From contig NC_014833.1 in NCBI RefSeq assembly GCF_000179635.2, forward strand, positions 2,220,001 through 2,252,000: DNA of 32,000 bases. Reading direction: 5' to 3'. Each line of letters opens with the position of its first letter. Position 1 is the stretch's first letter. This DNA is from Ruminococcus albus 7 = DSM 20455. Its GTDB lineage: Bacteria; Bacillota; Clostridia; Oscillospirales; Ruminococcaceae. This document shows positions 12,947 through 23,803 of this stretch, piece by piece. A program made the position numbers and the translations under genes. The notes beneath the pieces are model-generated. The model had not been told where the DNA came from. It was given only the letters and a program-made list of their open reading frames with translations, and made no database searches.

Positions 12947-13020
12947 TGTCACCGCTCCTCCAAAATGTCATCCAAAAGTGAACGTATCCTGTCAAGGACA
13001 GATACCGTATTTTGTCCATG
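12947..13020 (+). repeat. Left terminal inverted repeat with 4 TGTCA/TGTCC subterminal repeats
   Basis: The motifs start at 12947, 12966, 12990 and 13013, at offsets 0, 19, 43 and 66 from the tip. The first three offsets are identical to those at the right end. Confidence 0.65.
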
Positions 13021-13051
13021 AAAAAGCATCGAAAAAAAACAAACTGACTGA

Positions 13052-13090
13052 TCAGGCATTTGTATAACGCAAATGCCTGATTTTTCCTTT
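13052..13090. terminator. Bidirectional hairpin terminator just inside the left end
   Basis: A 12-bp perfect stem (aTCAGGCATTTG / CAAATGCCTGAt, 13051-13062 with 13070-13081) has an A-run upstream and TTTTTCCTTTTT downstream. Confidence 0.7.
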
Positions 13091-13179
13091 TTCGTCTCGC
13101 ACTTTGCCCAACTTCGAACTTGTTTTTTGCCATTATGCTCAAATTTTATGTTATAAATTCAAATTATATTAATACAAAC

Positions 13180-13208
13180 TTGACATAATGGTTAAATGAT
13201 GATAAAAT
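13180..13208 (+). promoter_or_regulatory. Sigma-A-type promoter of the island operon
   Basis: TTGACA (13180-13185), a 17-nt spacer, then TAAAAT (13203-13208) preceded by a TG (extended -10). It lies about 200 nt upstream of the first island gene. Confidence 0.6.
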
Positions 13209-13257
13209 AAATACATGAACTGGATGTTAAATATCCAAAAAGGAGTTGAAAAAATCC

Positions 13258-13338
13258 ATGCGGAATCATTATTATCAGATAGATAGAGAGATCGACAGAC
13301 ATGGCATAACTGCGCCCCTTTTCAATTTAATACTATAG
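13258..13338 (+). CDS. Possible 26-codon leader peptide (MRNHYYQIDREIDRHGITAPLFNLIL)
   Basis: ATG at 13258 with AGGAG 12 nt upstream. The stop at 13336-13338 lies 8 nt before the leader hairpin. This call is speculative. Confidence 0.25.
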   Translation: MRNHYYQIDREIDRHGITAPLFNLIL

Positions 13339-13345
13339 TGATAGA

Positions 13346-13391
13346 AGCGTACTCTTGGGGATAAGTGTTTTCCAAAAGGGTGCGCTTTTTA
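13346..13391 (+). promoter_or_regulatory. Terminator-like leader hairpin (possible attenuator) immediately upstream of the first island RBS
   Basis: An 11-bp stem pairs 13346-13356 with 13376-13386 (2 G-U pairs) and is followed by TTTT. The AGGAGG RBS is at 13394-13399 and the ATG at 13409. Confidence 0.4.
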
Positions 13392-13408
13392 ATAGGAGGT
13401 AGATCATT

Positions 13409-20899: not shown

Positions 20900-22398
20900 T
20901 TTTCTTCCCTCCATGGTAATAATATCGTTCCCGCAGGCTGTGAAAACAGCTCGGTCAGGTATTTCTCGGCATCAAGACCGTTCGCTTGTGCAGTTGAAAT
21001 GACTGAATACAGTGCGGCGCTCGCTTTTGCTCCGTTGGCTGTGTTACTGAATAACCAATTGCGTCTGCCGACAGCAAACGGTCTTATTGCGTTTTCGGCT
21101 CTGTTGTTGTCGATAGGCACGTCTCCGTTTTCGAGAAATGTATACAGATACTTCCGTTCATTCAGCGCATATCTTACTGCATCTGTCAGCTTGCCCTTAC
21201 CGCTGACCTGAACAGTTTCAAGCCACGCAAAAAACTCGTCAAGCAAAGGCTTTACCTTCACAAGGCGCTGTTCATATCTGTATTCTGTGGAGCTGTCGGC
21301 AAGCAGATTTTCTTCGTGATATATCTTGTTGAAATATTCTACTGCCTTTGCCGCAACAGAAGTGCTGTGCAGCTTTTGGTCGTTCGGAAGAGTCTGAATA
21401 AAACCACGCCTGGTATGAGTCATACAGCCGCACCGCTTCGCACTCTCGACAGCGTTGTAGGCATCATATCCGTCACAGACCAGATATCCGATAAAGCCTT
21501 TAAGGAAATTCGAGGGATGCTCGCCTTTCCTTGTGGGCTGATAATCGAAAATGATGATGTTGCGGTCGTTCATCTTGCCGTTGCAGTAGACCCACATTCT
21601 TGATGTCGAGGTAGGCTTTCTGCCTTCCTCGTGAAGCACTTGAACGGTCGTTTCATCTGCGTGGATGATCTGCCCCGAGATAAGCATCTCGTGCATCTTC
21701 TCTACAATAGGCATACACCATTTTTCAGCAGCCATAATCACCCAGTTTGAAATAGTTGCTTTGAGCAGAGGTATCTTCTTTGAATTAAAGTCCTTTTCCT
21801 GACGGTGCAGAGGTACAGACTTTGCATATTTTTCGTAGATGATATGCGCCAGAAGTTCGGGAGAACAATAGCTTCCCGGGATCATTGCATGAGGATACGG
21901 TGCACGGATGATATGACAAGGTTCGTCTCTTTCCTCGGGCTTTTCTCCGCACTCGGGACACTTGTATTTATGTACGATATGTCTGCGAATATAGAATTTG
22001 GCGGGTGAATATACAAGCTCATCATAAGCCTTTTCATCACCGATCTCCACCATTTTCGCACCGCATATCTCACAGACGGGATCTTTGATCTCATGATGTT
22101 CCTCTTTAACAGGAAGACTGCTCATCCAGTCATCATAAGTTCGCTTTTTCTTGCGCTTGTGTTCGGGAACAGTTATTGTTCCATGCTCTTTATATACAGA
22201 CTTTTCTTCTTTCCCGAACATCGATAGCTGAACACCGAATTCTTTCTCCATGACAACAGCTGTCTGCTCCGTTTTTCTTCCGAATATCTGCTTTCTGAAC
22301 CATTCCAGCTGCTGGTTGGCAAGTGCTAGTTCTTCTTTGAGGACAGCATTTTCATTACGGAGTGATACTATTTCCGATGTCATATTTTGTTCGGACAT
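20896..22398 (-). CDS. tnpC: IS66-family transposase
   Basis: About 500 aa, with an N-terminal leucine-zipper-like helix, a zinc-ribbon region (CEICGAKM...CPECG) and a DDE core typical of IS66 TnpC. I place the start at ATG 22398 (MSEQNMTSEIV) with GGAGGG upstream. The track start at 22464 lacks an RBS. Confidence 0.9.
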   Translation of the reverse strand: MSEQNMTSEIVSLRNENAVLKEELALANQQLEWFRKQIFGRKTEQTAVVMEKEFGVQLSMFGKEEKSVYKEHGTITVPEHKRKKKRTYDDWMSSLPVKEEHHEIKDPVCEICGAKMVEIGDEKAYDELVYSPAKFYIRRHIVHKYKCPECGEKPEERDEPCHIIRAPYPHAMIPGSYCSPELLAHIIYEKYAKSVPLHRQEKDFNSKKIPLLKATISNWVIMAAEKWCMPIVEKMHEMLISGQIIHADETTVQVLHEEGRKPTSTSRMWVYCNGKMNDRNIIIFDYQPTRKGEHPSNFLKGFIGYLVCDGYDAYNAVESAKRCGCMTHTRRGFIQTLPNDQKLHSTSVAAKAVEYFNKIYHEENLLADSSTEYRYEQRLVKVKPLLDEFFAWLETVQVSGKGKLTDAVRYALNERKYLYTFLENGDVPIDNNRAENAIRPFAVGRRNWLFSNTANGAKASAALYSVISTAQANGLDAEKYLTELFSQPAGTILLPWREEK

Positions 22399-22490
22399 AA
22401 AGCAACCCTCCGTTCGTGATGATACATCCATAATACCACGAAAAGAGGGGCTTTTCAAGCACATATTCTGAATATTCGGTAAGTATTGCC

Positions 22491-22847
22491 TTAATACAGC
22501 GCGCCCGGTTTTCCTTCACGGATAGCTTTCGGCTGTTCGATCTTCAAACCTTCTAAAAGCCAGCGAATTTGCTGAGATGTGAGCATTACAGCTTCTGTTT
22601 CACTGCGCGGCCACTGAAATCTTCCGTTGTCAAGGCGCTTGTACAACAGCAGAAAACCATCGCCCTCCCACAGCAGACCTTTGATGCGGTCACAACGTCT
22701 GCCGCAGAACAAAAACAATGCTTTCGAGAACGGGTCAAGTCGAAGCTGAGCCTGAACGATAGTCGCAAGTCCGTCTATCCCGCGTCGAAGGTCGGTGTAT
22801 CCCGTAACAAGATAGACCTGTGCGTCCGCTGCCAGATCATTCAGCAT
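22491..22847 (-). CDS. tnpB: IS66 Orf2 protein
   Basis: 118 aa with the classical IS66 Orf2 sequence (VYLVTGYTDLRRGIDGLATIV...LFLFCGRRCDRIKGLLWEGDGFLLLYKRL). The ATG overlaps the tnpA stop (ATGCTGA). Confidence 0.92.
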   Translation of the reverse strand: MLNDLAADAQVYLVTGYTDLRRGIDGLATIVQAQLRLDPFSKALFLFCGRRCDRIKGLLWEGDGFLLLYKRLDNGRFQWPRSETEAVMLTSQQIRWLLEGLKIEQPKAIREGKPGALY

Positions 22848-23158
22848 AGCTCATGCACCAAAGCGGTCAGAGTGTCCGCAGATATATCTGCCGGAAGAGA
22901 TATTTGAAGTCCGTTTTTCTCAATGCGGATATTTTCGTTTGAGCAAGGAACTGATACAGGAACGATGGTCGGAGAATTTTCGATATACTTTTCACGCACT
23001 TTTCTTAGGCGGTTGTAATACGTGTTTGGCTTGATCCCATTTTCTTTGCACCATTCCCGGATCGTCAGACCGCTTGCCTGCTGTGCTTTGATCTGCGCAG
23101 ACCATTCCTGAAGCTGCATTTCTTTTTTGATTGTTGTGATGGATGTTGTTTTGTCCAT
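22841..23158 (-). CDS. tnpA: IS66 Orf1 helix-turn-helix protein
   Basis: I place the start at ATG 23158 (MDKTTSITT) with GGAGG 8 nt upstream. The HTH region is GLTIREWCKENGIKPNTYYNRLRKV. It is the first gene of the IS66 tnpABC arrangement. Confidence 0.85.
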   Translation of the reverse strand: MDKTTSITTIKKEMQLQEWSAQIKAQQASGLTIREWCKENGIKPNTYYNRLRKVREKYIENSPTIVPVSVPCSNENIRIEKNGLQISLPADISADTLTALVHELC

Positions 23159-23299
23159 ACCTGTTACCTCCTTGTCTAATCGTCTCCAATGAACTCCATG
23201 GATCAATTTGGATTATTCAATTTACTTCATGGTGTTGTTTGGAGTTTATTATACTTCATTAGACTTTGGTGAGGTAGGTGCGTGTGGTTATACGCTTAC

Positions 23300-23527
23300 A
23301 CACTTAGAACAGTAAAAAACTCTCATAGAGTATTTTTCACGCTTTCGGCTATTTTCACGGAAAACAAAACGTCTGCATCTGCCGTTAAATCTCATATGAT
23401 TACCGCACTCAGGGCAAACTGCTTCTTCTTTACCGAAAATATAATGAATATCGTCTTTGACAAATGCGGAAAAATTCGATACAATAAACATAGTGTAGAC
23501 GATAGCCGAGTTATGACCGTGGATCAT
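23300..23527 (-). pseudogene. 5' fragment of the Cys-rich zinc-ribbon gene split by IS66 (DUF6431-like from memory)
   Basis: The fragment reads MIHGHNSAIVYTMF...CPECGNHMRFNGRCRR...YCSKC. The reading frame then enters the IS66 end and stops after 3 IS-encoded codons (VSV*). Confidence 0.7.
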
Positions 23528-23605
23528 ATAAGCAAAACGGCTATCGTTTTTCCTTTCTGAAATATGGTTATTAACATTATATCATATTTCCGAATAAATA
23601 AAAAA

Positions 23606-23653
23606 ACGGTATCCTCCCGGACACAAGGTCGGGAAGATACCGTTTTGTTTTTT
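23606..23653. terminator. Bidirectional hairpin terminator just inside the right end of the island
   Basis: A 15-bp stem with one mismatch (ACGGTATCCTCCCGG at 23606-23620 with TCGGGAAGATACCGT at 23629-23643) has AAAAAAA upstream and TTTGTTTTTT downstream. Confidence 0.65.
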
Positions 23654-23690
23654 GGTTTATCGCTGTTGTTTTCTCAGGAGCATTCTGCCC

Positions 23691-23803
23691 TGACAAATCG
23701 AGTGGTCATCTTGACAAAATAGAGTGTCTGCACCTTGACAGAACGAGTATCTGTGTGACAAGATACGTTCACTTCTGGATGACAAATAAAGGGAGCGGTA
23801 ACA
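23691..23803 (-). repeat. Right terminal inverted repeat with 6 TGTCA-type subterminal repeats
   Basis: TGACA on the plus strand occurs at 23691, 23712, 23736, 23756 and 23780, plus a terminal TAACA at 23799-23803. The offsets from the tip are 108, 87, 63, 43, 19 and 0. Confidence 0.65.

Follow-up and report, generated by a model that had tools for sequence, protein, structure and literature searches.

The 32,000-nucleotide (nt) stretch analysed here, referred to as the window, covers positions 2,220,001-2,252,000 of NC_014833.1 from Ruminococcus albus 7 = DSM 20455 and contains an island at 12947-23803 that is very probably a non-autonomous cargo derivative of an unnamed DUF6431-DDE-AAA+ transposon family, moved in trans after a deletion. 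The island carries a seven-gene operon for predicted secreted or surface proteins, two fragments of a DUF6431 gene and, between these fragments, an IS66-family insertion (Table 1). It lies past the transketolase terminator (~23852-23900; -23.2 kcal/mol, z -6.3), which is outside the element, and 154 nt upstream of the asp23 start codon, and the predicted asp23 promoter is untouched by the insertion. The operon is oriented opposite to all neighbouring genes, and the guanine plus cytosine content of the island is 0.45-0.49, against ~0.40-0.42 in the flanks. The contigs compared with the window are labelled by L-numbers, among which L001 is GCA_024689805.1, L047 is FOKQ01000061 of R. albus AR67, and L055 is R. 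albus SY3.

An earlier sequence-only reading of this DNA had described terminal inverted repeats with TGT...ACA tips, a strong hairpin just inside each end, and a placement between the transketolase terminator and the asp23 upstream region that disrupts neither, all of which is borne out. The arms (12946-12994, compared with 23804-23756 in reverse complement) match at 40 of 49 positions and their 29-nt cores at 27 of 29, with ATCAC (left) and GCCAC (right) as the outer flanks; extended to 58 nt (12937-12994 and 23756-23813), the arms form the top inverted repeat of the window (I1), with 78% complementarity. In the window a degenerate core pattern is confined to these two places, and none of 100 shuffles contains it; when the two 200-nt end regions are compared without gaps, the best 48-mer has 39 matching positions, far above the maximum of 28 obtained in 200 shuffles. 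Both hairpins are real by folding, with z about -5. Two further statements of that reading hold in part: the ends are inverted repeats, but not simple ones, as they belong to distinct left and right types with several TGTCA repeats each; and the cargo open reading frames (ORFs) indeed gave no recombinase or transposase match by Pfam, so that the only transposase genes within the element are those of the IS66 copy, but the first gene of a transposition module, DUF6431, is kept in split form.

The boundaries of the element are defined by a genome that lacks it. When contigs were sought by their identical Asp23 protein, the operon was found upstream of asp23 in nine of the ten places listed, while the tenth, L001, passes from the gene for the transketolase C-terminal subunit directly to asp23. 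L001 matches window positions 2439-12947 at 98.7% identity and 23806-32000 at 98.95%, with nothing between, and this flank identity of 98.7-99% places it in the same species as the window strain. Its empty junction, which reads ...AAATCACTTCAG..., joins window position 12946 to 23809; in the orientation of the window it is ...TTTAAATCAC TTCAGAAAATCG..., whereas at the filled site ...TTTAAATCAC is followed by the element, TGTCACC...GGTAACA, and then by GCCAC TTCAAAAAATCG.... The comparison of filled and empty sites thus gives an insert made up of TGT...ACA at 12947-23803 (10,857 bp) plus exactly 5 extra bases. The empty site that the sequence-only reading had envisaged in a relative therefore exists: its guess of 12946 joined to 23804 was right on the left side and 5 bases short on the right. 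That reading had also found no clean target-site duplication; there is one, imperfect in the window (ATCAC/GCCAC) and 5 bp long, as elsewhere in the family.

The two copies of the window duplication are identical at three of five bases, and both fit the pattern N-Y-N-R-N. A 3-bp duplication (CAC), with 'GC' belonging to the right tip, was considered and rejected, since 17 other right ends have unrelated bases at that place and the family duplication is 5 bp; the 'GC' beside the right tip is consequently not part of the element. Among the pairs compared, three duplications are imperfect (the window; L031; and L014/L013, ATAGA/ATAGG, for which the pairing is assumed), with mismatches that all touch a tip, and the six other pairs are perfect. 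As a speculation, such tip-adjoining mismatches may be donor-flank bases kept in gap repair.

The same ends occur far beyond the asp23 locus. Exact-pattern scans with the 21 specified core bases, run on species-representative genomes and then on metagenome contigs, recovered the core in 15 further stretches of the former (six contigs of R. albus AR67, two of KH2T6, and the rest from Ruminococcus metagenome-assembled genomes) and in 16 stretches of the latter; it was absent from the viral contigs scanned. Together they provide 32 end-flank observations, corresponding to ~25 sites besides the window (R. albus AR67, KH2T6 and SY3, and rumen metagenome-assembled genomes). All copies are alike from TGT inward, and the DNA outside TGT is unrelated; the other copies, which the sequence-only reading had proposed to seek with the end sequence, and the exact tips, which it had proposed to map from such comparisons, are now in hand. 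The left type begins TGTCACCGCTCCTCCAAA..., followed by the hairpin and the cargo, and was seen at 14 distinct sites with unrelated flanks; the right type begins TGTTACCGCTCCCTTTATT..., followed by extra TGTCA units, a second hairpin and the DUF6431 gene, and was seen in 18 distinct flanking contexts. The six perfect 5-bp pairs, one of them from a related insertion sequence, are listed in Table 1. A 97-bp miniature, in which a left end is fused to a right end with CTAAT and CTATA as flanks, was also found in a rumen metagenome (Ga0256405_10006407, L031 2104-2200).

The target sites share a symmetric preference. Counting outward from the tip, position -4 is a pyrimidine in 28 of the 32 flanks and position -2 a purine in 29, while the other positions are divided ~50:50. 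This N-Y-N-R-N preference confirms, independently of the duplications, both the assignment of the tips and the 5-bp stagger. In one intergenic stretch, TCCGGCACCCAAATATATC, two independent insertions of the family lie 10 bp apart, one in SY3 (L055 9541/17393) and one in AR67 (L023 ~731), the right end of the latter being truncated after ~55 nt.

The family also has members with a complete transposition module. In L015, L017/L047 (AR67), L027, L028-L030, L039, L040 and L048, the right end leads into the same genes, which encode a DUF6431 protein of 186-188 amino acids (aa), a 444-aa DDE transposase, a 270-273-aa AAA+ ATPase and a small 79-aa ORF product. Behind near-identical right ends, the gene trio is present in AR67 (L047), in a rumen contig from JGI (L027) and in GCA_024689805.1 (L048), the very assembly that has the empty asp23 site. 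The autonomous partner anticipated by the sequence-only reading was therefore demonstrated in a conspecific genome and in other R. albus strains, but not in that of the window. Copies in R. albus are large, extending >9.7 kb (AR67, L047) and >12 kb (L027) beyond the right tip, with cargo that includes sigma-factor, glycosyltransferase, dockerin and leucine-rich-repeat genes. In AR67 (L047 1-6000), the autonomous element adjoins Tn916-like integrative-element genes (integrase, Xis, FtsK/SpoIIIE), by way of which it might pass from cell to cell. One relative, 60% identical in its transposase, amounts to a plain insertion sequence of 3319 bp: it has the gene trio, a 5-bp duplication and the tips TGTTACCGCC...GGCGGCGACA.

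The 444-aa transposase is composed of tandem helix-turn-helix domains, an RNase-H-like core with a D161/D224/E260 triad, and a Mu-type beta-barrel. Pfam detects an N-terminal helix-turn-helix, rve_3 and Mu-transpos_C (2e-8; the Mu C-terminal domain PF09299, with 34.6 bits, clears its cut-off of 21.7), and D161, D224 and E260 are invariant across 28 homologues, down to 58% identity. Its AlphaFold model, with a predicted local distance difference test (pLDDT) value of 75, is matched best by the TnsB of type V-K systems (7e-22) and second-best by IstA of the IS21 family (4e-18), followed by Tn7 TnsB (4e-15) and MuA (6e-15); among solved chains, those closest in sequence are IstA of IS5376 (4.5e-7, best) and TnsB. 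All NCBIfam insertion-sequence models score far below their cut-offs for this protein (38.5 bits against 160 for the IS21 model), and RefSeq labels it 'DDE-type integrase/transposase/recombinase' only. The ATPase matches AAA_22 (4e-23) and has MuB as its nearest solved relative; it reaches 21.2 bits with TniB (PF05621), just under the cut-off of 22.4, and does not match IstB_IS21 (PF01695) at E <= 0.01. Two CxxC pairs are invariant in DUF6431, and the C-terminal half of this protein is helical; its AlphaFold model is poor (pLDDT 49). It was considered as a possible TniQ-like target selector, but permissive Pfam scans of 21 homologues together with a PDB profile search returned generic zinc-ribbon or zinc-finger matches only, with no detectable likeness to TniQ or TnsD. 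Neither an integrase nor a resolvase was found by Pfam, within the island or next to the intact copies.

The window copy retains only a split DUF6431 gene and is thus a non-autonomous derivative rather than a full family member. Its right end and DUF6431 remnants (23301-23803 and 19905-20176, ~780 nt) are 94-97% identical to autonomous copies. L003, an island version without IS66, is 97.4% identical to L027/L047 over the first 827-833 nt counted inward from the right tip; this identity breaks off 41 nt beyond the stop codon of DUF6431, with 31 nt left to the start codon of tnpA, and the convergent cargo operon follows, 3' end first. Most deleted copies have a DUF6431 gene broken in differing ways (121, 125 or 153 aa remain, compared with 186, and the window gene is split by IS66), and this varied breakage makes the gene look more like a relic in decay than like a function that these copies retain.

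Evidence for movement of the deleted form comes from SY3, where a left end, a 183-aa first gene, the ubiquitin-domain protein described below, a 188-aa last gene, a DUF6431 remnant and a right end lie at another locus among unrelated genes, bordered by HipA-type antitoxin and Rce1-like genes at one end and by those for SNO glutamine amidotransferase and HSP20 at the other. The island at the asp23 site (L003) and that in SY3 (L055) align without a break over 3370 nt at 95% identity, starting at the right tip, crossing DUF6431 and reaching the cargo, and the SY3 target sequence is uninterrupted in AR67. Because the two sites share the same junction between DUF6431 and cargo, the transposase-less form has been inserted at at least two chromosomal sites. 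The element thus appears to have moved after losing its transposase, and the simplest reading is that the deleted form was mobilised in trans by the enzymes of an intact copy. L012, L019 and L041 add three more sites that have the left end and the first cargo gene, 90% identical. Mobilisation in trans as a non-autonomous element, the central proposal of the sequence-only reading, is accordingly supported by the empty site, the ~25 other sites, the partner genes and the SY3 junction.

By analogy with Mu, Tn7 and IS21, the transposase would bind the ~22-bp-spaced TGTCA repeats (four TGTC units on the left, six on the right) and pair the two ends, and the ATPase would present target DNA, to which the ...ACA-3' ends would be joined at strands staggered by 5 bp, preferably within N-Y-N-R-N; DUF6431 may also have a role. 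A deletion starting 31 nt upstream of tnpA took out the genes for transposase and ATPase and left both ends, DUF6431 and the seven-gene operon, which the promoter-leader module of the left end would drive. The deleted element would then have been moved by proteins from an intact copy into the gap between transketolase and asp23, where IS66 later hit DUF6431. Movement may be replicative or of the cut-and-paste type, and the window copy may be mobile at present.

Several observations weigh against this account. The window duplication is only three-fifths identical although the flanks differ from those of the empty-site strain by ~1%; nearly all conspecific contigs have the element at the asp23 site, with no sign of recent movement; and the SY3 copy lacks the terminal A of its right tip. 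An intact copy in the window strain's own genome is not shown, the one hint being an assembly break in the left end: L063 (Logan SRR1168526), an isolate-like assembly 100% identical to window positions 1-12995, ends right after the 29-nt core of the left end, which suggests another left-type end in the same sample with slightly different first 19 nt. Contigs retrieved by the XseB protein stop at or near the left end. The SY3 site, moreover, could stem from an intact copy already resident there that recombined with a deleted one, and this leads to the most serious competing explanation, in which the island is a fixed relic that never moved after transposase loss, an intact element having inserted at the SY3 site and had its interior swapped by double crossover. 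The ends indeed offer ~460 nt (left) and ~830 nt (right) of homology for such recombination, the cargo is mosaic between strains, and the occupation of a single asp23 site in nearly all conspecific contigs is in keeping with fixation. Even so, two independent insertions plus a conversion, with both forms present in one cell, would be needed, which is more events than transposition in trans requires; the left end accompanies the same first cargo gene at L012, L019 and L041 as well, and the 97-bp miniature demonstrates that protein-less derivatives of this family do insert. We therefore consider the relic explanation improbable.

Two further explanations carry next to no weight. The repeated TGTCA motifs, terminators and promoter could resemble regulatory DNA, and the repeats might then be local operator arrays around an operon ancestral at the asp23 locus; this idea is already refuted by the conspecific genome that precisely lacks the segment and by the multi-site distribution, as the same ends, starting at TGT, border unrelated DNA at ~25 sites with 5-bp duplications and flank a DDE/ATPase pair. 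Equally hard to credit is an island brought in by composite transposition of IS66, for which the IS66 copy inside it might speak, or by a tyrosine or serine recombinase at an attachment site: there is a single IS66 copy with its own 8-bp duplication, island copies free of IS66 refute its involvement, and the junctions, in an island where Pfam finds neither integrase nor resolvase, are those of a 5-bp staggered cut with no att core. Transposition in trans, followed by a late IS66 insertion, remains the reading we prefer.

Table 1. Features of the island in the window, and perfect target duplications of family members at other sites
Feature	Position or contig	Strand	Remarks
Left copy of 5-bp target duplication, ATCAC	12942..12946	.	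Identical to the single copy in the L001 empty site
Left end, tip TGTCACCGCTCC, presumed transposase-binding repeats	12947..13035	+	TGTC units at 12947, 12966, 12990, 13013; spacing 19, 24, 23 nt
Left hairpin terminator	13050..13092 (hairpin 13050-13082)	+	14-bp stem and T run; -20.5 kcal/mol, z -5.1
Element promoter TTGACA-17-TAAAAT and leader	13180..13408 (promoter 13180-13208)	+	TG before; 11/12 matches; ends in the ribosome-binding site of the first cargo gene
Cargo operon, seven predicted secreted/surface proteins	13409..19793	+	
Cargo genes	13409-13960, 13974-16535, 16554-17399, 17392-17964, 17964-18695, 18708-19214, 19227-19793	+	
DUF6431 C-terminal fragment	19905..20164	-	94-97% identical to L027, L017, L039, L040; homology to autonomous copies ends here
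8-bp duplication of IS66, ACACTTAG	20157-20164 and 23300-23307		Inside the second CxxC of DUF6431
IS66-family insertion, 3135 bp	20165..23299	-	Ends GTAAGCG...CGCTTAC; placed by comparison with L003
IS66 genes	tnpA 22841-23206, tnpB 22491-22847, tnpC 20896-22464	-	Pfam
DUF6431 N-terminal fragment, zinc-ribbon CxxC	23300..23527	-	PF20020; cut by IS66 inside the second CxxC
Extended -10 box, TGATATAAT	23576..23584	-	Between right hairpin and DUF6431; read from sequence
Right bidirectional hairpin terminator	23606..23653	.	A run at one flank and T run at the opposite one; ~-28 kcal/mol for each strand, z -5
Right end, tip TGTTACCGCTCC	23672..23803	-	TGTCA repeats at 23803, 23784, 23760, 23740, 23716, 23695; spacing 19-24 nt
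Right copy of 5-bp target duplication, GCCAC	23804..23808	.	Imperfect; the two mismatched bases adjoin the right tip
Perfect 5-bp duplication CTCAC	L020/L017		AR67
Perfect 5-bp duplication CTGGC	L044/L035		
Perfect 5-bp duplication CATAA	L033/L037		
Perfect 5-bp duplication TTGAC	L034/L038		
Perfect 5-bp duplication CCAAA			R. albus SY3
Perfect 5-bp duplication GCTGA			Related 3319-bp insertion sequence

The ends themselves are asymmetric. Counted from the tip, repeat units begin at 1, 20, 44 and 67 in the left end and at 1, 20, 44, 64, 88 and 109 in the right; all start with TGTC except that at the right tip, which starts with TGTT, and TGTCA has a background frequency of 1.9 per kb per strand. 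Over 150 nt, the left end shares 92.7% identity with that of the AR67 autonomous element (L020); the right end shares 96-97% with its autonomous counterparts, and the tips, TGTYACCGC...ACA, are the same as theirs. Direct repeats in such asymmetric arrays typify the ends of Mu, Tn7 and IS21 (PMC10122671).

The terminators and the promoter-leader module belong to the element as well. The left hairpin is kept at other sites with compensating changes (C.A to T-A or C-G), and the right hairpin is kept in right ends at other sites. In most cargo-bearing copies, ~460 nt inward from the left tip are conserved even where the first cargo gene differs, a stretch that comprises the terminator, a near-consensus promoter, a ~200-nt leader and a ribosome-binding site. 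The leader (13209-13408, plus strand) matches no Rfam family; it contains a short ORF from ~13262 and, ahead of the ribosome-binding site, a hairpin with a U run. On the right side, the extended -10 box TGATATAAT is likely the promoter of the transposition module, judging from its sequence; a two-hexamer scan did not flag it.

The cargo operon exists in several versions (L002-L010, L049, L050 and L055). Its first gene and last four genes are conserved, while the middle is mosaic between strains (14493-16142 compared with L002/L003, L049/L050 and L055): the window has an 853-aa protein there, other versions have a 669-aa protein together with DUF6273 proteins, and still others have PI-PLC and beta-helix genes. 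The gene at 17964-18695 (plus strand) encodes a 243-aa protein with a signal-peptide-like N-terminus and a eukaryote-type ubiquitin domain (PF00240, 7.9e-29); this protein is kept in every version of the operon, including that of R. albus SY3, and a literature search for R. albus together with a ubiquitin protein found no description of it. Several cargo proteins (13974-19793, plus strand) share a repeated C-terminal module, DP(T/S)YTV(T/V)IPA ... YAG(D/K)YTGT(L/V)TF, and the last one ends in NPATG, a hydrophobic stretch and RKKG, resembling a sortase sorting signal. From these sequence features, the shared module and the sortase-like ending together, it is suggested that the cargo proteins may form a cell-surface fibre or similar structure.

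The IS66 insertion is a late, unrelated event. It is absent from all other versions of the island (L002-L010 and L055), and a contig of GCA_000621285.1 that is 100% identical to the window ends exactly at the IS66 edge. Downstream of tnpC, an extra 108-aa cysteine-rich ORF (20588-20914, minus strand) has no Pfam match.

Compared with known systems, the machinery groups with Mu, Tn7, Tn552/Tn5053 and IS21, in which a DDE transposase works with an AAA+ partner. The best-known Gram-positive cargo transposon with this arrangement is Tn552 of Staphylococcus aureus (p480, p271, BinL, bla), in which a DDE transposase with a Mu C-terminal domain is likewise followed by an ATPase of ~270 aa; its gene order was confirmed, and its transposase is ~26% identical by tblastn over 83% of the query (E 5e-14). 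However, Tn552 has a resolvase with a res site and no DUF6431, whereas no resolvase is found in L027, L030, L047 or L048, and its duplications measure 6-7 bp rather than 5 bp. Mu (MuA/MuB) shares the Mu C-terminal domain, the nearest solved ATPase (MuB), 5-bp duplications and a symmetric target consensus, N-Y-S-R-N compared with N-Y-N-R-N here, but the present family has no enhancer, repressor, or structural or phage genes, and its proteins are much smaller. IS21 resembles it in having a transposase gene followed by an ATPase gene (IstA, IstB), multi-repeat ends, 5-bp duplications and a transposase with tandem helix-turn-helix domains, a DDE core and a beta-barrel (PMC10122671). The IS21 ATPase is of the IstB type, in contrast to the AAA_22/MuB type without a PF01695 hit found here, where a third conserved gene, DUF6431, precedes the transposase gene and R. 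albus cargo exceeds 7 kb.

With Tn7-like and type V-K elements (TnsB, TnsC and a small TniQ), the family shares TGT...ACA tips, asymmetric multi-repeat ends and 5-bp duplications; in both, the cargo is large and variable, and the module comprises three proteins, the third of them small and zinc-binding. Unlike them, it has no TnsA, no TniQ or TnsD beside intact copies and no CRISPR module, and its insertions are dispersed, following the N-Y-N-R-N preference only, rather than directed to a single attachment site. The machinery thus falls outside every named family compared, and the conserved DUF6431 is its distinguishing component. The window element, for its part, is best filed as a non-autonomous derivative of the DUF6431-DDE-AAA+ family that resembles mobile insertion cassettes, which similarly consist of passenger genes within the ends of an autonomous element, lack a transposase, generate a target duplication and depend on a partner. 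It differs from them in that its parent is a transposon with transposase and ATPase instead of a simple insertion sequence, and in that it still has one module gene as a relic and drives its cargo from a terminator-promoter-leader unit of its own.

The family is not confined to R. albus. Several hundred homologues were detected in Clostridia, and plasmid NZ_CP104065.1 of Alicyclobacillus dauci (L062) carries genes for DUF6431, a DDE transposase (46% identity), an AAA ATPase and a small DUF5348 protein; the presence of this module in a distant Bacillota plasmid means that the family reaches well beyond the rumen Clostridia. In the literature searched, it has previously been mentioned only as an unexplained three-gene repeat, and DUF6431 turns up in just two papers: 15 copies of the three-gene cassette are reported in Clostridium sp. 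JS66 (bioRxiv 10.64898/2026.08.16.744336), and DUF6431 cassette genes are listed beside the sialic-acid cluster of R. gnavus (PMC12323340), and neither mention defines ends, duplications or mobility. A broader view, which we offer tentatively and regard as less likely than not, is that DUF6431-DDE-AAA+ elements may constitute a distinct, unclassified family, sister to IS21, Tn552, Mu and Tn7, with DUF6431 as a new third factor, and that the R. albus branch might be a plug-in expression vehicle (left-end terminator, strong promoter and conserved leader) that swaps secreted or surface-protein cassettes, one of them with the eukaryote-type ubiquitin domain, and is spread even by copies without enzymes.

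What is newly defined comprises the exact tips, the 5-bp duplication, the Mu-like target preference, the left and right repeat arrays, the partner, and natural protein-less and 97-bp derivatives. The defined ends and derivatives suffice for designing a transposition assay and for probing the role of DUF6431, and the left- and right-end sequences serve as a marker for further cargo islands in Ruminococcus. Although a derivative of this kind is not surprising in principle, it is resolved well enough to open the family to experiment. For the biology of R. albus, a major rumen fibre degrader, the element explains how an operon of secreted proteins has spread among strains, namely by a transposon and not by a phage or an integrative element.

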